A stretch of DNA of 64,000 nt, from NCBI GenBank assembly GCA_002299915.1, contig DBOG01000014.1, positions 6,268 through 70,267 of the forward strand, read 5' to 3'. The DNA comes from Proteobacteria bacterium UBA652 (GTDB taxonomy: Bacteria > Pseudomonadota > Gammaproteobacteria > Nitrosococcales > Methylophagaceae). Shown here in pieces: positions 41,249 through 49,479 of the stretch. A model generated the notes under the pieces. The model saw nothing but the letters and a program-made list of their open reading frames with translations. It was not told the origin of the DNA and searched no databases. The first letter of the stretch is position 1; every line of letters starts with the position of its first letter. The position numbers were made by a program, and so were the translations under genes.

Positions 41249-42104
41249 CGGGAAACAGCTGCGTTTTGATGGCAATGGGGAAATGATATTGCAGTTTGTG
41301 TTGATGCTGTTGGAGGATCATTGCTTTTTCTGTGAATTGGATATGATAGTTGATAGGCGTATCGTCGCCTTCGAGCTGGAGGCTGAGTGTTGCACCTGCC
41401 TCTGCTGGTGGTTGTTTTACAATCTGCAGGTTGGCTGCTTGCGTGTGTTGCCATGCGGTGAGTAGGGCTCCTATTTGGTCTGGATTGAGTGTGTTATCGC
41501 TGCTGGTCCAGTGGCCTTCGACTTGTGATAAAAAACCATCGGGCCGCTCTAATCCGATCCAGCTGACATGAAGCAGGCGAGGCTGTTTATTACTTAACGA
41601 TGGAATAAGTTGATTATCAAGGAAGCTACTGGGATTAGCGAGTAATAAGGGATAGATACGATCAGCAATCAGATAGACTTTGTGTTGGTGATGAAGATAG
41701 CGCTGTTTATTGAGGGGAGATGTGTTGCCAAATTCAAATAGATGGTGATCGAGCAGAAGTTGGATTTGTGGAGGGGAAAGACCAAAAGGTGAGAGATCAA
41801 GATCATCGGATTGTTGGCTAAAGACGGGCGTGTTAAGTAAATCTAAGATAAATTGAATACGATTTGGATTGGCTTTGGCTAGTACAGGCGAAATCAGGTG
41901 CCAGTCGCCCTGTGTTGTGGATTTCACTAATAGAAGATCATTATGTTGCCGCTGAATGTGAATACGATTGATGCTGTCAGTTTGGATTTGGGTAAGTTGT
42001 TGGGGGCTGGATATTGTTGGCGGGCGCTGAGTAAGCCAGAAGAGACCAGAAATCAGTAGTAATAAGCCGATATTAATAAGGAATGATTTACGCATTAGTC
42101 TCAT
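41241..42104 (-). CDS. DUF4340-like protein (accessory component of GldG-type ABC systems)
   Basis: N-terminal TM anchor MRLMRKSFLINIGLLLLISGLFWL. The ATG overlaps the stop of the GldG-like gene (ATGA). The stop overlaps the mutM start by 8 nt. Confidence 0.55.
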   Translation of the reverse strand: MRLMRKSFLINIGLLLLISGLFWLTQRPPTISSPQQLTQIQTDSINRIHIQRQHNDLLLVKSTTQGDWHLISPVLAKANPNRIQFILDLLNTPVFSQQSDDLDLSPFGLSPPQIQLLLDHHLFEFGNTSPLNKQRYLHHQHKVYLIADRIYPLLLANPSSFLDNQLIPSLSNKQPRLLHVSWIGLERPDGFLSQVEGHWTSSDNTLNPDQIGALLTAWQHTQAANLQIVKQPPAEAGATLSLQLEGDDTPINYHIQFTEKAMILQQHQHKLQYHFPIAIKTQLFPDA

Positions 42105-43435
42105 CGATGTCGACGACGCCACCAGATAACAGTACCGATGATGAGTAATAAGATAGGTAGCGCAAGAAAGAAGCCAAGCCCAATTACCATACTGTGTGTT
42201 TTACTTAGACTGAGTTGGATGTCATTGCCTGTTTTTATGGGGATTTGAATCAGCGCATCATCGCCCACCAACCAGTTTATCAGTGCAATTCCGAGATCGA
42301 GATTACTGGCATTACCAAGATAGGCATTACTGAGAAAATCCCCATCACCAATAATGGCAATCCGTTGTTGTTCTTCACTGAGCAATAAGCCAATATCAAA
42401 GGGGCCAATACCGTCTACCATTTCATCAAATTCGGGTGGCTTGGATGTGCTTTCTATATCAGACCAGACATTTTCTTTGCTGGTGAGTAGGGGAAACGCT
42501 TGCCAGTGGTGGGAGGCACTTTCCTGGTATCTTACACCAACGGCATGGGGAAATAAGGTGACGGAAGGTACGGCTTGACCGATAGGATGATCGGCATAGC
42601 GGCTGATAATTATAAATTTCGGATCGCTGATGCCGAGTAATTCACCATTGGGATCAATCAGAGTACCTGGGGTGAATTGGATATTCAGTTGTTCAGCAAG
42701 GGCCGCAAGGTGTGTATTTGATTCTGGCTCTGTTAACCAGAGTAAATTACCGCCTTGTTCAATAAATGCTTTCACAATATCAATTTCACCTGGTAGCCAA
42801 GCTGTTTCTGGGCTGGCAATGACGAGCACAGCCGTATTGTCGGGGATCTGGCTATGCTCAGCAAGATTGAGCGTACGTGATTGGAAGCCTTTTTGATGGA
42901 GTTGTTGCTGCCAAAGGTTTAGACCAAAGTTGGCATCAGACAACGGGCGTTCACCATGCCCCTCAGTGAAGATGAGCCAGTGTGCTGCATCACGTGAGAT
43001 ACGGATAAGTGCATTGGTTAGCGATTGTTCTGAGAGATCATAAACATGTTCTTGGCGCGTATCACGCTGGACGATGATTTCACCTTCCTGCTGAATATTG
43101 AATTCACGCACTTGATCGGGGGCGAAATTAGGATCGATATAGTGTAGTTCAAGTAAGGGGTTTTGTGTCTGATAGCGATCAAATTGCGCAGTAATAGCAG
43201 GCTTGAGATCGCTATTATTGCTGATAAATGCGGTAATCGTTATAGGTTCTTTGATCTGTTTGAGTAGTGTTATTGTCGTCTCTGATAGGCTGTGGCGTTG
43301 GGTGGCAGTCCAATCGCTGTGTTGATTCGTTTGGATGGAGAGCTTGGCGAGTAATGTCGTTGCAAGCAAAACCAATAGATAGAAGATAATGGTTTGGAAG
43401 CGTAAATGGCGGGTATTTTTATGCGTGATATTCAT
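42101..43435 (-). CDS. GldG-like ABC transporter auxiliary protein (ABC_transp_aux family)
   Basis: 444 aa with N- and C-terminal TM anchors and a large periplasmic domain. Follows an ABC ATPase and an ABC-2 permease, with overlapping stop/start codons. Confidence 0.65.
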   Translation of the reverse strand: MNITHKNTRHLRFQTIIFYLLVLLATTLLAKLSIQTNQHSDWTATQRHSLSETTITLLKQIKEPITITAFISNNSDLKPAITAQFDRYQTQNPLLELHYIDPNFAPDQVREFNIQQEGEIIVQRDTRQEHVYDLSEQSLTNALIRISRDAAHWLIFTEGHGERPLSDANFGLNLWQQQLHQKGFQSRTLNLAEHSQIPDNTAVLVIASPETAWLPGEIDIVKAFIEQGGNLLWLTEPESNTHLAALAEQLNIQFTPGTLIDPNGELLGISDPKFIIISRYADHPIGQAVPSVTLFPHAVGVRYQESASHHWQAFPLLTSKENVWSDIESTSKPPEFDEMVDGIGPFDIGLLLSEEQQRIAIIGDGDFLSNAYLGNASNLDLGIALINWLVGDDALIQIPIKTGNDIQLSLSKTHSMVIGLGFFLALPILLLIIGTVIWWRRRHR

Positions 43436-44172
43436 GATGACAGCCGCATACTATTAAGGTGACGGATAGTCAGAATAAGGCAGAGACCAGTAAGCAAGAG
43501 GAAGTAAGCGATATCACTGGTATTTACATCGCCTTGCAGTAGGGGATTTAAGTGGGTGGGAATGGCGAACCAGTTGAGAACACTGGCACCATCGCTACTG
43601 TTTGAGCTGAATAGCCAGAGTAAAAAGAGGCTGGCAAAGGTGCTAATGGCAGCAATAATAGGTTGTTTTGTGAGCGAGGAAAAATACAGGCCTACGGCAG
43701 TAAAGCTAGCAACTAATAGTACGAGACCCAGTAAGCCTGCAGCGAGTTGGCCATAATCTAAGTGACTGCCCAACGCAAGCGATAAGGGCATTAAGCTGAC
43801 CATACACAATAAAATAATAAAGAAGGCAAAAGTACCCAGGAATTTTCCAATGACTAATGCCGACATGGAAAGAGGGGCAGAAAAAAGCAGGGGAAGTGTT
43901 CCATTTTGACGTTCTTCGGCAATCAGTCGCATCGTGATCAGTGGGGTTATGAGTAGTAATATCAGTGCGGCATTATTCAATAACATGGTTGCAACCAACT
44001 CGGTAACCCCGGGTGCACCTGGAATAGTGACAAGCTGAGATTGAAAACTGAGGAAATAATCAACATGACTGAGGAAAAGATAGGCCAAAATCAACTGGGT
44101 GAGAGCTAAAATAACCCATGCCAAGGGTGATAAAAATAGGCGGTAGAGTTCATTGCGAGCGAGCGAAATCAT
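43432..44172 (-). CDS. ABC-2 type transporter permease
   Basis: 246 aa, six predicted TM helices. Overlaps both neighbours by 4 nt. Confidence 0.75.
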   Translation of the reverse strand: MISLARNELYRLFLSPLAWVILALTQLILAYLFLSHVDYFLSFQSQLVTIPGAPGVTELVATMLLNNAALILLLITPLITMRLIAEERQNGTLPLLFSAPLSMSALVIGKFLGTFAFFIILLCMVSLMPLSLALGSHLDYGQLAAGLLGLVLLVASFTAVGLYFSSLTKQPIIAAISTFASLFLLWLFSSNSSDGASVLNWFAIPTHLNPLLQGDVNTSDIAYFLLLTGLCLILTIRHLNSMRLSS

Positions 44173-44915
44173 CCGGTTTCCTCAAGCTGGTCATCATCAA
44201 ACTGAATAATATTCATAAATGCATCTTCTAAAGAATCTTGCTCTGTTAATGCGGATACAGCGCCTGTAAACAGTAATTTTCCATGATGCATAATCTGTAC
44301 GCGATCACACAATGTTTGCACTTCAGGCAAAATATGGGTGGAGAGGATGACGCTATGTTGATCTGCTATATCACGGATCAATTGCCTAATTTGGCGGATT
44401 TGAATGGGATCCAGCCCACTGGTAGGCTCATCTAGAATCACCACCTCAGGTTTATGGATAATGGCTTGTGCAATGCCGACCCGCTGTTCATAGCCTTTAG
44501 ATAGATTTGCTATCAATCGCTGTGATAGATCACTTAATCCACAGCGTTCAATCACCTCCGCTACTGCTGCGGACTGTTGTTTTGTTGGGATCTGATTTAG
44601 CCGCGCACAAAAACGTAGGAATTCGGCGACGGTTAGAGATTTATAAAGCGGTGGTTGTTCTGGTAAGTAGCCAATATGTTGTTTGGCTTGCAATGGTTGC
44701 GAAAAGAGATCATAGCCATTCACTGTTATTTCACCATGATGGGGTGCAAGATTGCCCGTGAGCATTTGCATGGTGGTGCTTTTACCAGCACCATTTGGAC
44801 CAAGAAAGCCCAATACTTCCCCTTGATTAACATGAAAGCTAATCGAATCCACTACGTGTTGTGTGCCGTAATGACAGGATAATTCAGTAGCAGTGAGGAG
44901 GGCGGTTTCTGTCAT
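44169..44915 (-). CDS. ABC transporter ATP-binding protein
   Basis: Walker A GPNGAGKST, signature LSKGYEQR, Walker B VVILDEPTSGLD, H-loop STH. Confidence 0.92.
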   Translation of the reverse strand: MTETALLTATELSCHYGTQHVVDSISFHVNQGEVLGFLGPNGAGKSTTMQMLTGNLAPHHGEITVNGYDLFSQPLQAKQHIGYLPEQPPLYKSLTVAEFLRFCARLNQIPTKQQSAAVAEVIERCGLSDLSQRLIANLSKGYEQRVGIAQAIIHKPEVVILDEPTSGLDPIQIRQIRQLIRDIADQHSVILSTHILPEVQTLCDRVQIMHHGKLLFTGAVSALTEQDSLEDAFMNIIQFDDDQLEETG

Positions 44916-44996
44916 CTGTAGATCTATATAATGTGGAGACTAATATTATATAGAATAGGTCACTCGAAAGTCGCAAAAATTAGATTATCTGTCAGT

Positions 44997-45149
44997 CTCT
45001 CAGCGATCCCTACGAAACAAGTGAAAACGCATTCATGAATAAAACACTTATAGTACACTTCCCCTCAGAATTAACAACCGATCAAATTGTTAAACTATTC
45101 GCGTTTTGTTATTTATCGTTTTTATTCATTTTGTAGGGATCGCTCAGAG
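44997..45149. repeat. about 153-bp element bounded by 17-nt terminal inverted repeats (MITE-like or long regulatory palindrome)
   Basis: Left arm CTCTCAGCGATCCCTAC (44997-45013). The reverse complement of the right arm (45133-45149) is CTCTGAGCGATCCCTAC, a 16/17 match. Additional imperfect inner symmetry (TGAATAAAA on both arms) and a central TTAACAA-N9-TTGTTAA palindrome. Confidence 0.5.
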
Positions 45150-45192
45150 TCCGAACCATTAGGTTTGAACACTGTGCATAAAATCGATAAAC

Positions 45193-45260
45193 AGGCTCTA
45201 TCCACACACGAACGACAGGAGAGAGGGTCTAGTATTAGATAGAGCCTATTCAGCGACTTT
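45193..45260 (-). terminator. possible terminator hairpin after the EF-hand gene (long loop)
   Basis: AGGCTCTATC (45193-45202) and GATAGAGCCT (45238-45247) form 10-bp arms. On the minus strand the hairpin is followed by GTTTATCGATTTT. Confidence 0.35.
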
Positions 45261-45269
45261 TTCTATTTG

Positions 45270-45548
45270 TTAGCTTTTAGTAAAAAAGCGAACAAATTCT
45301 TGCGGGTCAACTGCGCCATCCTGGCTTGTATCAATTGCATCCCAATTACCTGAAACATCTGGGTCAGCAGCAGATTCTTCTTTGCTAACAGTTCCATTAC
45401 CATCAACATCCAGTGCTTTCCATTTTGTATTCAAATCTGTTGTTTCAGTCGCAGGTGCATCCATTGTAGGTGCAGCTGGAACAGCAGCATCTCCTGCATA
45501 TGCTGATGTTGATAGCACTGCAATAGATAAGATAGTTAATAACTTCAT
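45270..45548 (-). CDS. secreted EF-hand calcium-binding protein
   Basis: 92 aa. Signal peptide MKLLTILSIAVLSTSAYA. Two canonical 12-residue EF loops, DVDGNGTVSKEE and DTSQDGAVDPQE. AAGGAA SD. The longer ORF to 45662 would run through the promoter. Confidence 0.75.
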   Translation of the reverse strand: MKLLTILSIAVLSTSAYAGDAAVPAAPTMDAPATETTDLNTKWKALDVDGNGTVSKEESAADPDVSGNWDAIDTSQDGAVDPQEFVRFFTKS

Positions 45549-45611
45549 AATTAATTCCTTTTTTTGTCTAAACAAATTACTGCATGAGAGTCTACGCAGT
45601 ACTAGGGCTAA

Positions 45612-45627
45612 TGCAAAGCGTGTGCCA
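45612..45627 (-). promoter_or_regulatory. sigma-54 (-24/-12) promoter
   Basis: The minus strand reads TGGCAC-ACGCT-TTGCA, an exact match to TGGCAC-N5-TTGCA. It is 64 nt upstream of the EF-hand ATG and downstream of a sigma-54 activator gene. Confidence 0.75.
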
Positions 45628-45721
45628 ACTAAAATAAATAATATAAAATAACTATAAATCAATTAGATACGGGTTTTTTAAAGTTTTGGTTAGAGTCGCG
45701 ACATAAATAAAAGGCGGAAAG

Positions 45722-45739
45722 TGTCTGGCTTACCCGACA
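45722..45739. promoter_or_regulatory. TGTC-N10-GACA box 1 (GlrR/QseF-type activator site)
   Basis: TGTCtggcttacccGACA, about 120 bp upstream of the -12 element. Confidence 0.6.
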
Positions 45740-45854
45740 GTTATTGCTCGGTTGATATGGGGCAAGGGGACAAAAACCTCTTTCCCTTCACTTGTAATTG
45801 TATAAATGTCTGATATTAAATGTGTTTTATATGTTTAATAGATTGTTTATTATT

Positions 45855-45872
45855 TGTCGTGCAATAGAGACA
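45855..45872. promoter_or_regulatory. TGTC-N10-GACA box 2
   Basis: TGTCgtgcaatagaGACA. An AT-rich, bendable stretch lies between boxes 1 and 2. Confidence 0.6.
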
Positions 45873-45941
45873 AAGAGAATCAAGATAAAGCAATGTAGTT
45901 AAAAAGAGCAGTAAAGACTTGCTAATACGCTTAATCTGTCG

Positions 45942-45959
45942 TGTCACTTATTAGCGACA
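45942..45959. promoter_or_regulatory. TGTC-N10-GACA box 3
   Basis: TGTCacttattagcGACA, just downstream of the regulator stop codon. Confidence 0.6.
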
Positions 45960-45974
45960 TTGGGGTGAAACAGC

Positions 45975-47342
45975 CTATTTTTGGGGCTTAAATTGGGCTG
46001 CTTTCAGATCATGTCGTTTGAGTAAACGATAAAATTCAGTCCGATTTCGCTTTGCTAAACGGGCTGCCTCTGTCACATTACCATTGGCTAGCTGTAATAG
46101 TTTAATGAGATAGTCTCGTTCAAAGTTAGTTTTTGCATCGTTAAAACTCAGTAACGTTGCCTGTTTTTCTTGTAAGGCATTGTCCACTAAGTTAACAGGA
46201 ATTAACGGTGTGGTGGCAAATGTACAGATATGATCAATGATATTTTTTAGCTGTCGTACATTCCCTGGCCAGTGGTAACTGACCAACTTCTCTAATGCTT
46301 CATTAGAGAAGCCTTTCGCGAGAGAGGCACTATTTGTAATGAAGTGTTGCGCTAAAATAGGAATATCTTCGAGTCGTTCTGTTAAAGGGGGCAAGCGTAA
46401 GGTGACGACATTGAGTCGATAATAGAGATCCATCCTAAACAGCTCTTCAGATATAAGCTGCTGAAGATCGCGATGGCTAGCAGAAATAATGCGGACATCA
46501 ACTGCAATGGAAGTGTTGGCACCGACGGGACGTATTTCACTTTCTTGCAGTGCGCGGAGTAGTTTCACTTGGAAAGCAGGCGACATATCACCAATTTCAT
46601 CTAAGAATAAACTGCCGCCATCTGCAGTCTCAAATAAGCCTTGGCGCGACTCGGTTGCACCTGAGAAAGCGCCTTTGCGGTGACCAAATAATTCAGACTC
46701 TAATAAATCTTCAGGAATCGCACTACAGTTCACCGCAATAAAAGGTTTATCGCTACGTTTGCTAGCTTTATGCAGCGCCTGTGCGATAAGTTCTTTACCC
46801 GTGCCGCTTTCGCCTTGGATATACACACTGACATCACTTTGTGCAACGCGCTGCACTTCACCCAGCAAACTTTCCATCACCACACTTTGACTAATAATAT
46901 CGTGTCGCCAAGTATCTTGCTCTGCAGTAGTTTGATTAGGGAGAGCATTGATGTTGAGCGCTAAGCCTTTGGTAATGAGTGTGAGCAATTCTTGGCTATC
47001 AAAGGGTTTAGTAAGAAATCCAAAAGCACCTTGATTGGTGGCAGCAACGGCTTCTTTTATAGTGCCGTGTGCGGTTAAAATAATAGTGGGTAGGCCTGGG
47101 TGGTGTTCTTGGATATGACTAAATAATGCGAGTCCATCCATTTCTGCCATTCTGAGATCGGTAATCACCAATTGTGGTGAAAACCTGGGGATCACAGAGG
47201 TGGCTTGCTTGCCACTGGTGGCTGTCTGAACTTCCAGCCCTGTCGCGCGTAGGCGAACGGCTAATAGCTTTAGCAAACTTGGATCATCGTCGACCAATAA
47301 AACCCGCTGACCATGAAAATTATTATCTATAGATTCACTCAT
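45975..47342 (-). CDS. sigma-54-dependent response regulator, GlrR/QseF-like (NtrC family)
   Basis: 455 aa. Receiver domain (LLVDDDPSLL ... DLRMAEMDG). AAA+ domain with GESGTGKE, GAFSGA loop and ESELFGH. C-terminal Fis-type HTH. Gene order kinase-lipoprotein-regulator matches glrK-qseG-glrR. Confidence 0.85.
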   Translation of the reverse strand: MSESIDNNFHGQRVLLVDDDPSLLKLLAVRLRATGLEVQTATSGKQATSVIPRFSPQLVITDLRMAEMDGLALFSHIQEHHPGLPTIILTAHGTIKEAVAATNQGAFGFLTKPFDSQELLTLITKGLALNINALPNQTTAEQDTWRHDIISQSVVMESLLGEVQRVAQSDVSVYIQGESGTGKELIAQALHKASKRSDKPFIAVNCSAIPEDLLESELFGHRKGAFSGATESRQGLFETADGGSLFLDEIGDMSPAFQVKLLRALQESEIRPVGANTSIAVDVRIISASHRDLQQLISEELFRMDLYYRLNVVTLRLPPLTERLEDIPILAQHFITNSASLAKGFSNEALEKLVSYHWPGNVRQLKNIIDHICTFATTPLIPVNLVDNALQEKQATLLSFNDAKTNFERDYLIKLLQLANGNVTEAARLAKRNRTEFYRLLKRHDLKAAQFKPQK

Positions 47343-48006
47343 CTAGTTTTTTATTTAAGTCTGTTTCAATTGCTTTCAGTGCTTCTATTTTGCTGTTTTC
47401 TTCTTCTAATTGCATCTCTGCATTATCAAGTTTTTTATTAATATCCGTTTCAATTGCTTTGAGTGCTTCTATTTTAGAGTTTTCGGCTTCTAATTCAGCC
47501 TGTACTTTTTGTAATTGACGGTTTAAGTTTATCTTTTCTTTTTGCATCTTCTCAAGTTGATTTAATAGATTAATTTGATTGCTATGCAACCATTGCAATT
47601 GCGCTGAGCTATCTGGCGCTGCTTGAATTGTTTGTAGCAATTCAAGTGATCGCTTCAAGGGAATACAGCTAAAATCAGCATTGATAGCATAGACCAGTAG
47701 CCACGCCGTTTGCCAATTGGCCAGTGAATCATAGTCTTGTTTAAGCTGTTTACAGGCTATTTTTTGCTGTGATTTCTCCAGCCCTTGATATTGCATGCTA
47801 CGAAGGAATAAATGATAGACTCCTGCCTGCTCTGGTGCCATTGAAAAAGAGCCAGGTGGCGGAAATGACTGCGACGGGCGAGCGTGTGGTGTGACCACGA
47901 CTGCCTCAGAATTGGTTTCCGCTGTAGATTCAGAGGGGAGCGTGGTATAACAACCTTGAAGACTGATTAGCAGTAAGTAGAAAAGTGGGTTAACTAATTT
48001 TCTCAT
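47335..48006 (-). CDS. QseG-like lipoprotein with duplicated coiled-coil C-terminus
   Basis: Lipobox LISLQGC. Located between the kinase and the regulator. The C-terminal ENSKIEALKAIETD-NKKLD, present twice, resembles the E. coli QseG tail KLENLTDIERQLS. Confidence 0.55.
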   Translation of the reverse strand: MRKLVNPLFYLLLISLQGCYTTLPSESTAETNSEAVVVTPHARPSQSFPPPGSFSMAPEQAGVYHLFLRSMQYQGLEKSQQKIACKQLKQDYDSLANWQTAWLLVYAINADFSCIPLKRSLELLQTIQAAPDSSAQLQWLHSNQINLLNQLEKMQKEKINLNRQLQKVQAELEAENSKIEALKAIETDINKKLDNAEMQLEEENSKIEALKAIETDLNKKLDE

Positions 48007-48009
48007 GGT

Positions 48010-49479
48010 TTACATATTATCCTGTGGAAATTGTAGAAAAAAACGGGCACCAGGGTAATCCTCCGTTGGTGTTAATAGTTCGATCGTACCATTATGCGCT
48101 GCTAAGTAATAATTGACGAGAGCCAAGCCGAGGCCCGACCCTTTTACGCCCCATTGGTGCGGCAGATCTCCTTGATAAAAATCATTGAAAATATAGGGAC
48201 GGATCGCTTCAGAAATACCGGGGCCTTGATCTTCGACGGTAAGTTGAATGGTGTCATCATGTATATTTAAACTGATTTTAATCGTGCCATCAATAGGGGA
48301 GAATTTGAGTGCATTGGAAAATAGGTTGCCGATAATAATTTTAAGTTTGTCATAATCCGCATGAATATAGGTACGGTCAAAATTATGCGCTACCGAAATA
48401 TGTCTATTTTTAATGAGCAACTGGTATTCGTTGACAATACGGGCAATCAAACCATCTAGTTCAAAACTAGAAAAGGCAAGATCCACACGGGTGGCAATTG
48501 TTTTCTGATATTCTAACAAGTTATCGACTAGATTGTGGATGTTCAGATTACCCATTTTCATTAATTGCACGATTTCTGCTTGTTCGGCATTAAGTTCACC
48601 CACTACATTTTCGGATAATAGATCCGTGCCTTCTTTTAGGGTGGCCAAAGGTGTTTTGAGTTCATGCGATATATTACGAATAAAATGTTCTTTTTCTTGT
48701 TCTAAATGATTGAGATTTTGCCTAAGTGATTCCAAACGTGCGCCTAATTCGGTTAAATCTTTTGGCCCATTAATGGCGATAGGATCTTCAAATCCAATAT
48801 CCCCTAAATTACGGATGGCCTCGCCTATCTTTTTGATAGGTTGCGTTAAAAAGTGAACAAATAGCAATGCGAGAAATAGTGCTAGTGGGATACTTGCCAA
48901 CGCAGAGTAAATAAGCCGTTGCTGCATATTTTTAGATCGTGTTGCCAGGGTGTCTGCCTCGACTCCAATCTTCTTTTCACCATCATCCAATAAGGTTTTT
49001 GCTTGCGTTGTTAATTGATCGAAGGCGCTTAAATCAGACTTGGCTAATTGTAGTTCATGTCTTGCAGATTTATCCAAAATATCTTGATGCAGTTGGGTTT
49101 CAGTTGTCTCAAGGATTTCTAAGCTACCAAATAGATTAGTATCTTGTGTGTAGGCCTGAAGTGAGCGTAGCACATCTAAAAAGGTCGCTCTATTTTCTAA
49201 ATAGGATTCAAATAACTCGGGTTCATCTAAGACTTGGAATTGTCGAATATTACGTTCCATCGAGATCAAACGTTCGAGTAAGACACGACTGCCTTCCGTA
49301 TGCTTCACTGCTTGGAATAGGGTATGTTGACTTTGTTGGGTATATTTCCCCACATCTAATACGGTATAGATGATTACAAATATTAATGGCACAGTAACAA
49401 TGACAAAGCTCGCCAATACCCATTGGTAAAGCGAACCAATGCTAAACGTTTTGTTTTCAGCAGTGTTGTTTTGGATCAT
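48010..49479 (-). CDS. sensor histidine kinase, GlrK/QseE-like
   Basis: 489 aa. Two TM helices flanking a periplasmic domain, a HAMP domain, H-box FIRNISHELKTPLATL, and N/G boxes (NLFSNALKFSP, GSGLGLALV). Confidence 0.8.
   Translation of the reverse strand: MIQNNTAENKTFSIGSLYQWVLASFVIVTVPLIFVIIYTVLDVGKYTQQSQHTLFQAVKHTEGSRVLLERLISMERNIRQFQVLDEPELFESYLENRATFLDVLRSLQAYTQDTNLFGSLEILETTETQLHQDILDKSARHELQLAKSDLSAFDQLTTQAKTLLDDGEKKIGVEADTLATRSKNMQQRLIYSALASIPLALFLALLFVHFLTQPIKKIGEAIRNLGDIGFEDPIAINGPKDLTELGARLESLRQNLNHLEQEKEHFIRNISHELKTPLATLKEGTDLLSENVVGELNAEQAEIVQLMKMGNLNIHNLVDNLLEYQKTIATRVDLAFSSFELDGLIARIVNEYQLLIKNRHISVAHNFDRTYIHADYDKLKIIIGNLFSNALKFSPIDGTIKISLNIHDDTIQLTVEDQGPGISEAIRPYIFNDFYQGDLPHQWGVKGSGLGLALVNYYLAAHNGTIELLTPTEDYPGARFFLQFPQDNM

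Follow-up and report, generated by a model that had tools for sequence, protein, structure and literature searches.

The window analysed in this study, a 64,000-nucleotide stretch of contig DBOG01000014.1 from Proteobacteria bacterium UBA652, carries on its minus strand a three-gene cluster coding for a sensor histidine kinase, a lipoprotein and a sigma-54-dependent response regulator, followed downstream by a small gene for a secreted protein with one EF-hand pair. Sequence analysis indicates that the cluster is a divergent QseE-QseG-QseF (QseEGF, or GlrK-QseG-GlrR) system, and that its local, probably main, target is likely the adjacent EF-hand gene and not a small RNA (sRNA) of the GlmY type. 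QseEF/GlrKR systems have been studied intensively because they affect virulence and cell-envelope homeostasis in enterics. The signal of the system in E. coli K-12 was still called unknown in 2018 (PMC6075780), and the occurrence of the qseEGF cluster outside enterics, where it is widespread in Pseudomonadota, has already been published (PMC12691602). A first-pass annotation of the window had described the gene order, a set of regulator-binding boxes and a sigma-54 promoter, and had proposed that a regulatory architecture of the glmY/glmZ type serves here for the production of an EF-hand protein.

The three open reading frames (ORFs) of the cluster (49479-48010, 48006-47335 and 47342-45975, minus strand) abut or overlap, and the ORF list and Pfam reproduced the order kinase-lipoprotein-sigma-54 activator given by that annotation. 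The same order was found in 22 of 22 loci with a regulator at least 50% identical, E. coli among them. The kinase gene (qseE/glrK-like; 48010-49479, minus strand) codes for 489 amino acids with Pfam HAMP, HisKA and HATPase_c domains, upstream of which lie two predicted transmembrane segments and a periplasmic sensor of about 147 amino acids. Its product is 27% identical to E. coli GlrK over 407 amino acids, sensor domain included. Within the sensor, the motif MERNIRQF aligns with E. coli MERSYRQY, and R76 and R79 fall on QseE R70 and R73, the arginines shown to bind QseG (PMC12691602); the QseG-binding arginine pair is thus preserved. The top PDB sequence match of the kinase was 9m08_C (167 bits, residues 16-473, sensor included), chain C of 9M08 being the Salmonella QseE in the QseG-QseE complex solved by cryo-electron microscopy. 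The remaining PDB kinases scored at most 86 bits and matched the catalytic core alone.

The regulator gene (qseF/glrR-like; 45975-47342, minus strand) codes for a protein of 455 amino acids (Pfam receiver, Sigma54_activat and HTH_8) composed of a receiver containing Asp62, an AAA+ domain whose loop reads GAFSGA, and a helix-turn-helix (HTH) of the Fis type. It is 54% identical to E. coli GlrR across the full length (443 residues), and its recognition helix, RNRTEFYRLL, is nearly the same as that of GlrR, RNRTEFYKLL. GlrR was the best of the NCBIfam models (592 bits, against 437 for NtrC and 380 for ZraR). In a neighbour-joining tree of 54 regulators, the protein was placed in the GlrR clade together with E. 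coli, Xenorhabdus and Arsenophonus GlrR; this clade takes in regulators from Kushneria, Neptuniibacter, Pseudoalteromonas and Betaproteobacteria as well, and the window regulator stands apart from the other sigma-54-activator loci sampled, one from Shigella included.

The lipoprotein gene (qseG-like; 47335-48006, minus strand) codes for a predicted outer-membrane lipoprotein of 223 amino acids, which was recognized by its lipobox LQGC (Cys19), by a C-terminal motif shared with QseG and by transitive profile comparison. The lipobox is followed by a disordered linker, a small helical domain and a long C-terminal helix, predicted to span 88 residues in an AlphaFold model with a predicted local distance difference test (pLDDT) score of 86. 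This helix ends in the motif KIEALKAIETD[IL]NKKLD, whose counterpart in E. coli QseG is KLENLTDIERQLS; K-[IL]-E-x-L-x-x-I-E-x-x-[ILM] is common to both proteins, and the motif corresponds to the residues L209, E213, R219 and K220 that were mutated in Salmonella QseG (PMC12691602). Profiles of the window lipoprotein family matched with hhalign a set of intermediate lipoproteins from the equivalent position in Kushneria, Neptuniibacter, Sulfuriferula, Rhizobacter and other lineages (96.7%, E 3.5e-10), and these intermediates in turn matched enteric QseG (91.8%, E 7e-7). The window lipoprotein would accordingly be a remote homologue of QseG, lying beyond direct recognition. An 84-nt (28-amino-acid) tandem duplication inside the gene (47341-47495, minus strand; 1.8 copies, Tandem Repeats Finder) doubles the C-terminal motif ENSKIEALKAIETD[IL]NKKLD. 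The motif is doubled in the window and in the relatives L084 and L085 (loci used for comparison are designated here by L numbers), and is present in one copy in the relatives L086-L091. By analogy with Salmonella QseG, the doubled stretch is a putative QseE-binding segment. It is the family evidence from regulator, kinase and lipoprotein taken together that led us to classify the trio as a divergent QseEGF system, in agreement with the placement originally suggested and not with a different NtrC-family system.

The 426-bp intergenic region downstream of the regulator contains three perfect TGTC-N10-GACA motifs, the sequence known as the GlrR site (PMC3045617). The distal box 1 (TGTCGCTAATAAGTGACA, 45942-45959), box 2 (TGTCTCTATTGCACGACA, 45855-45872) and the proximal box 3 (TGTCGGGTAAGCCAGACA, 45722-45739) lie at -332, -245 and -112 from the promoter start, respectively, and span 238 bp. 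They are the only three such motifs in the window, for which shuffles expect 0.66; at least three anywhere in the window were obtained in 4 of 100 shuffles, and the Poisson probability of three inside one 348-bp stretch is about 8e-9. Their clustering is therefore very unlikely by chance, as had been claimed. The boxes are followed by a sigma-54 promoter (TGGCACACGCTTTGCA, 45612-45627, minus strand) with the -24/-12 element TGGCAC-N5-TTGCA, the sole TGGCAC-N5-TTGCW of the window (expected 0.12), and with a predicted transcription start near 45601. From the end of this promoter to the ATG of the EF-hand gene at 45548 there are 64 nt. A sigma-70-like promoter was not found on this strand of the locus. 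Between box 3 and the promoter the DNA is richer in A+T (75%) than the locus (57%), and this spacer includes a site resembling those of integration host factor (IHF), TATCTAATTGATT, with one mismatch to YAANNNNTTGATW (45657-45669, minus strand). The site recurs at the corresponding place and in the same orientation in L084, again with one mismatch, and in L085, where it is perfect; given a degenerate consensus and AT-rich DNA, this counts as weak evidence.

In glmY and glmZ, three activator-binding sites (ABS), IHF sites and a sigma-54 promoter have been shown experimentally (PMC3045617). When the control loci of E. coli, Xenorhabdus and Arsenophonus were subjected to the same analysis, boxes were located at -203/-170/-107 and GlmY was found. 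The distance from the proximal box to the promoter is about 80-126 bp in every lineage examined (-107 at E. coli glmY), and this constancy argues for a conserved looping geometry. The boxes, the AT-rich stretch and the exact promoter element of the first-pass annotation were all recovered at their positions, and together with the IHF-like site they are consistent, at the sequence level, with its proposal of a glmY/glmZ-like architecture.

The gene behind this promoter (45270-45548, minus strand) codes for the secreted EF-hand pair protein, of 92 amino acids, and was supported by Pfam, PROSITE-type loops and coding-type substitutions. Its product starts with a signal peptide (45548-45495) of the form MK-hydrophobic-AYA (MKLLTILSIAVLSTSAYA, followed by G at the predicted cut), and its two loops, DVDGNGTVSKEE (45410-45375) and DTSQDGAVDPQE (45332-45297), both fit the PROSITE EF-hand pattern, as the canonical loops of the earlier description should. 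Pfam EF-hand_1 (33.9 bits), EF-hand_5 (33.8 bits) and EF-hand_6 (28.6 bits) were all above their gathering scores. Differences between the ORF and its L084 homologue number 11, 3 and 18 at codon positions 1, 2 and 3, as expected for a coding sequence. A longer, TTG-started ORF of 130 amino acids had been annotated by one source; it was discarded, its start lying upstream of the promoter and homologues giving it no support. The mRNA would have a 5' untranslated region (UTR) of about 53 nt with the Shine-Dalgarno sequence AAGGAA. Straight after the stop codon there is a strong hairpin, likely a terminator (45184-45258, minus strand; -36.7 kcal/mol, z = -5.6), so the EF-hand gene would form a self-contained transcription unit.

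At the other end of this unit, a hairpin TACTGC...GCAGTA followed by a U-rich stretch (45578-45601, minus strand) coincides with the predicted transcript start. A hairpin at or within a few nt of the predicted start was seen in most QseF-type target promoters, whatever the downstream gene (window, L084, L085, L087, L173-L175, L008, L009, L006 and L013), examples being TGCTG..CAGCA, TACTGC..GCAGTA and, in Rhizobacter, GCGGCTC..GAGCCGC with TTTT. These hairpins have energies of -4 to -10 kcal/mol and z values from about -2 to +0.7, and RNAalifold on eight UTRs gave a consensus of -1.8 kcal/mol with a covariation term of almost nil. The element could stabilize the 5' end or act as an attenuator, with modest statistical and covariation support.

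Close relatives were collected by exact-protein look-ups, and L173-L175 were reached via lipoprotein homologues; the regulators of the directly looked-up relatives are 69-84% identical to that of the window. In two collection scans, generic motifs of sigma-54 activators (VNCSAIPE, LFLDEIGD, FLDEIGDM) dominated the output, and close relatives were absent from it; the distant QseF-like loci (50-57% identity) come from these scans. All parts of the unit, from kinase, lipoprotein and regulator through boxes and sigma-54 promoter to the secreted EF-hand ORF, were present in seven close, Methylococcales-like relatives (L084, L085, L087, L089, L173, L174 and L175). Box positions relative to the promoter are about -335, -247 and -105 to -115 in these loci, and the 5' UTR measures about 45-55 nt. 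The flanking genes vary from locus to locus (PEP (phosphoenolpyruvate) carboxylase/RuvB; porin/aldose epimerase; sox genes/extracytoplasmic function (ECF) sigma factor; ParDE-transposase; others) and are unlike those of the window in at least five of the seven, which indicates that the four genes move as a group. When the intergenic regions of five loci were aligned, identity was 52% overall, the three boxes, the promoter and the Shine-Dalgarno/ATG standing out as conserved islands; the promoter island TTGGCA...TTGCA is invariant in the aligned relatives.

The association extends to other proteobacterial classes. Genes for secreted EF-hand pairs stand behind boxes and promoter in Sulfuriferula (L008), in an uncultured gammaproteobacterium (L004) and in three metagenome loci (L095, L096 and L106). 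In Neptuniibacter marinus (L009) there are two tandem EF-hand genes, together with a perfect box at -113 and a TGGCAC-N5-TTGAT element. The four tandem EF-hand genes of Pseudoalteromonas (L016) diverge from the kinase, and the boxes there are weak and accompanied by a TGGCAT-N5-TTGTA element; this locus was counted for gene association and left out of promoter conservation. Cultured carriers include Neptuniibacter marinus ATR 1.1 (NZ_LUTR01000024.1), Pseudoalteromonas sp. ASV78 and a Sulfuriferula isolate. The slot upstream of the kinase that glmY occupies in Xenorhabdus, Arsenophonus and E. coli holds the EF-hand gene, oriented like the kinase, in L004, L009 and L096. Altogether, there are 15 loci in which an EF-hand homologue adjoins a QseEGF-like cluster. 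Among 36 QseF-like loci, 12 contained small ORFs with an EF-hand loop of PROSITE type, against 3 among 130 loci of other sigma-54 activators (Fisher p = 5.9e-7). The EF-hand proteins of these loci align as one architecture, made up of a signal peptide, a variable linker and one EF-hand pair of constant spacing. Conservation of boxes, promoter and EF-hand gene among relatives, which had been named as a check on the original proposal, is thus observed in the seven close loci and beyond them.

Rfam searches gave no GlmY or GlmZ match at the gathering threshold in the 64-kb window, nor at E <= 10 in 44900-46100; GlmY was recovered in the positive controls L007 (143 bits) and L011 (128 bits). Together with the coding-type ORF, this favours the proposed EF-hand output in place of a GlmY-type sRNA. 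Other outputs were encountered behind the same cassette of boxes and promoter, which precedes a BON-domain protein in Herbaspirillum (L006:6089-6433) and MdoG/OpgG in Rhizobacter (L013:6037-7620). EF-hand-BON fusion genes lie directly after the cassette-driven EF-hand gene in Sulfuriferula (L008:6607-7122) and in L106 (2190-2708), and these fusions tie the EF-hand outputs to the BON outputs. In four metagenome loci with QseF-like regulators, box and promoter are found upstream of a conserved protein of about 55 amino acids ending in ...ALEELAERVNAARSVV (L097:5080, L098:5163, L100:5146 and L101:5115), for which neither a signal peptide nor a Pfam match was found. Perfect boxes and a sigma-54 promoter with no convincing ORF occur in Kushneria (L005:1660-2375) and in a Burkholderiales metagenome-assembled genome (L010:5870-6500). 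Rfam detected no GlmY at the gathering threshold in either locus, and none at E <= 1 in Kushneria; on sequence grounds, both are candidates for undescribed sRNAs controlled by QseF-like regulators outside Enterobacterales. The domains of the BON, EF-hand-BON and MdoG/OpgG outputs are of periplasmic or envelope-associated types. The targets of enteric QseF/GlrR include glmY and rpoE (PMC6075780), and with these the envelope-type output domains fit a role in envelope homeostasis.

A mechanism can be proposed from these features. As the conserved interface residues suggest, the outer-membrane lipoprotein would use its C-terminal helix to contact the four-helix periplasmic sensor of the kinase, and the kinase so assisted would phosphorylate the regulator at Asp62. 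By homology to glmY/glmZ, the phosphorylated regulator would bind the three boxes, which lie upstream of the promoter by 112-332 bp; it would be brought to sigma-54 RNA polymerase at 45627-45612 by an IHF-type bend of the AT-rich spacer, and ATP hydrolysis would open the promoter. The predicted product is a monocistronic mRNA starting near 45601 with the 5' hairpin and ending at the hairpin at 45258-45184. Its 92-amino-acid precursor would be exported by Sec and cut after AYA, leaving in the periplasm a mature protein of about 74 amino acids with one EF-hand pair. With moderate confidence, we infer that this protein is most likely a Ca2+-binding envelope factor. It might act as a periplasmic Ca2+ buffer or sensor, or it might feed back on QseE/QseG, as ZraP does on ZraS and CpxP on CpxA.

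A different use of the promoter was considered, in which its real product would be a short regulatory RNA analogous to GlmY: transcripts would mostly stop behind the hairpin at +1, at a length of about 35 nt, or else undergo processing within the 5' UTR, and the EF-hand ORF would be reached by minor read-through. The same promoter architecture does drive an sRNA in enterics (PMC3045617), and the hairpin with its T-rich tract lies exactly at the predicted start and recurs in relatives, with one A-U to G-C exchange between loci. This explanation is nevertheless unlikely in view of the lack of any Rfam match, the weakness of the hairpins, the consensus fold almost devoid of covariation, and a Shine-Dalgarno sequence followed by a conserved ORF under purifying selection at a constant distance of about 45-55 nt. 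Moreover, 5'-terminal hairpins are a common mRNA-stabilizing feature. The metal bound by the EF-hand protein could also be other than calcium. Lanmodulin (LanM) of methylotrophs is a small periplasmic protein with four EF-hands bearing Pro at loop position 2, and a lanmodulin-type binder of lanthanides or another metal, tied to methylotrophy, would suit a host whose relatives are named Methylomarinum, Methyloprofundus and Methylococcales; the label 'Methylococcales-like' for the host rests on these homologue names. LanM and the window protein would then share a methylotroph-related host, and weak matches were obtained with the lanmodulin model of NCBIfam (19.9 bits, where the cut-off is 135) and with the lanmodulin chains 6mi5 and 8fns (E about 0.003-0.004). 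Such matches are far under cut-offs and typical of any EF-hand, and the window protein has two ordinary loops instead of four, with V and T in place of Pro at position 2. In addition, the same gene association occurs in Neptuniibacter, Pseudoalteromonas and Sulfuriferula, which to our knowledge are not known as methylotrophs, and we regard a lanmodulin-type function as quite improbable.

It is very improbable, finally, that the adjacency is incidental, the boxes serving for read-through control of qseEGF or for another regulator and the EF-hand gene lying outside the control of the system. Some relatives do have the system with no adjoining EF-hand gene; against this, boxes, promoter and EF-hand ORF move together, either downstream of the regulator or upstream of the kinase, every lineage maintains a distance of about 80-126 bp between proximal box and promoter, as is the case at glmY, and EF-hand genes are strongly enriched beside QseF-like regulators and not beside other sigma-54 activators. 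The recognition helix of the regulator, furthermore, matches that of GlrR, whose site is TGTCN10GACA (PMC3045617).

Several observations weigh against the assignment of the cluster to QseEGF with an EF-hand gene as its target. Boxes, promoter and EF-hand gene are not beside the regulator in the Methyloprofundus-like L086 and L088, and likewise not in the Thiomicrorhabdus-like L090 and L091, so this output is either not universal or located elsewhere in those genomes. The 592 bits of the regulator are below the NCBIfam GlrR equivalog cut-off of 763, and its sigma-54 contact loop (residues 224-229; 46657-46674, minus strand) reads GAFSGA and not GAFTGA. The GAFSGA form is invariant across 11 aligned relatives (63-100% identity), E. 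coli GlrR having GAFTGA, and a Thr-to-Ser change in this loop is tolerated in PspF. Direct comparison of the window lipoprotein with QseG was not significant by BLASTP and reached only 0.9-3.7% by hhalign; Pfam YfhG did not match it, phmmer against PDB did not return QseG, and Foldseek of its model against PDB gave no significant match whatever, QseG included. The AlphaFold model of the EF-hand protein, built from 4 proteins, all that the word-indexed homologue search found, is poor (pLDDT 52). Finally, rpoN does not lie within the 64-kb window, and the presence of sigma-54 is therefore assumed.

Compared with the enteric QseE/QseG/QseF-glmY/glmZ system (PMC3045617, PMC6075780, PMC12691602), the window has the same gene order, the QseG-binding arginines, a lipoprotein that likewise combines a lipobox with a C-terminal L-x-x-I-E motif, and a regulator with a near-identical HTH. 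Both also have a sigma-54 promoter preceded by an IHF-like site and by three TGTC-N10-GACA sites, the proximal one at a distance of about 110 bp. The differences lie in the contact loop GAFSGA, in a QseG beyond direct sequence recognition and with a duplicated C-terminal motif, in distal boxes 87 and 133 bp apart (33 and 63 bp in enterics), and in the lack of an overlapping sigma-70 promoter at the target. Above all, the window target is a gene for a secreted EF-hand pair, whereas the enteric targets are the sRNAs GlmY and GlmZ, and it is located downstream of qseF and not, as in enterics, upstream of qseE, so that the operon would not be autoregulated through its target.

In other envelope two-component systems, ZraS/ZraR-ZraP of E. 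coli and Salmonella and CpxA/CpxR-CpxP, an adjacent gene for a small periplasmic protein is induced. Induction by ZraSR is sigma-54-dependent, and ZraP binds metal and acts back on its kinase. Both ZraP and CpxP are helical and have no relationship to EF-hand proteins. ZraR belongs to a different NtrC-family branch; on its model the window regulator scores lower than on that of GlrR (380 and 592 bits). A recent precedent, by analogy, for a periplasmic EF-hand protein coupled to an envelope-stress regulator is CaBP of Caulobacter vibrioides, a Sec-exported protein encoded beside, and acting in a loop with, such a regulator (the sigV circuit), in a system answering Ca2+ limitation and acid (PMC13171946). 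CaBP has 133 amino acids, three EF-hands and an ECF sigma factor as partner, in contrast to the sigma-54 two-component system of the window, and the two proteins were compared by EF-hand motif alone.

Full-text literature searches found no paper joining GlrR, QseF or QseE to an EF-hand, none for QseEGF/GlrK with calcium-binding, and none for sigma-54 with EF-hand and two-component. QseF-like activators are listed by Francke et al. with no EF-hand link, and a 2025 structural paper does not address QseEGF targets outside enterics (PMC12691602). The sensor-activator machinery and the enhancer grammar are thus familiar, and the output class is undescribed in the literature searched, which leaves the novelty attributed to it by the first-pass annotation standing.

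Directly downstream of the EF-hand unit, the window contains an operon for an ATP-binding cassette (ABC) transporter of the ABC-2 type (42101-44915, minus strand), with genes for an ATPase, an ABC2 permease, an ABC_transp_aux/DUF4350 protein and a DUF4340 protein. This operon adjoins the module in L084 too and not in L085, L089 or L173-L175; since it is not kept beside the module, it is probably not in the regulon. An imperfect palindrome of about 165 nt (44991-45155) is situated between the EF-hand terminator and the ABC-transporter gene, with arms GTAGGGATCGCT[C/G]AGAG (-55 kcal/mol, z = -6.1; one occurrence in the window). It may be an insertion resembling a miniature inverted-repeat transposable element or a large regulatory hairpin, and it explains spurious matches to Rfam microRNA models on both strands. 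The sole Rfam family above threshold in the window was 6S RNA (SsrS, RF00013; 498-681, plus strand; 88 bits, full model).

The findings place tiny EF-hand proteins of bacteria, a family almost without functional annotation, in a regulatory context, and they portray one enhancer-promoter cassette as rewired between a protein-coding gene and an sRNA. The conserved promoter-level link to a secreted EF-hand protein is also a testable lead on what QseE/GlrK senses. As a tentative extension, which we hold to be possible and rather doubtful, the secreted EF-hand pair, sometimes BON-fused or BON-replaced, would be the commonest and possibly the ancestral output of QseEGF in Gamma- and Betaproteobacteria, and the system would monitor a state of the outer membrane or periplasm that depends on Ca2+ or other divalent cations. 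If this were true, the long-unknown signal of QseE/GlrK would be the cation status of the envelope, and the EF-hand protein may be a feedback partner.

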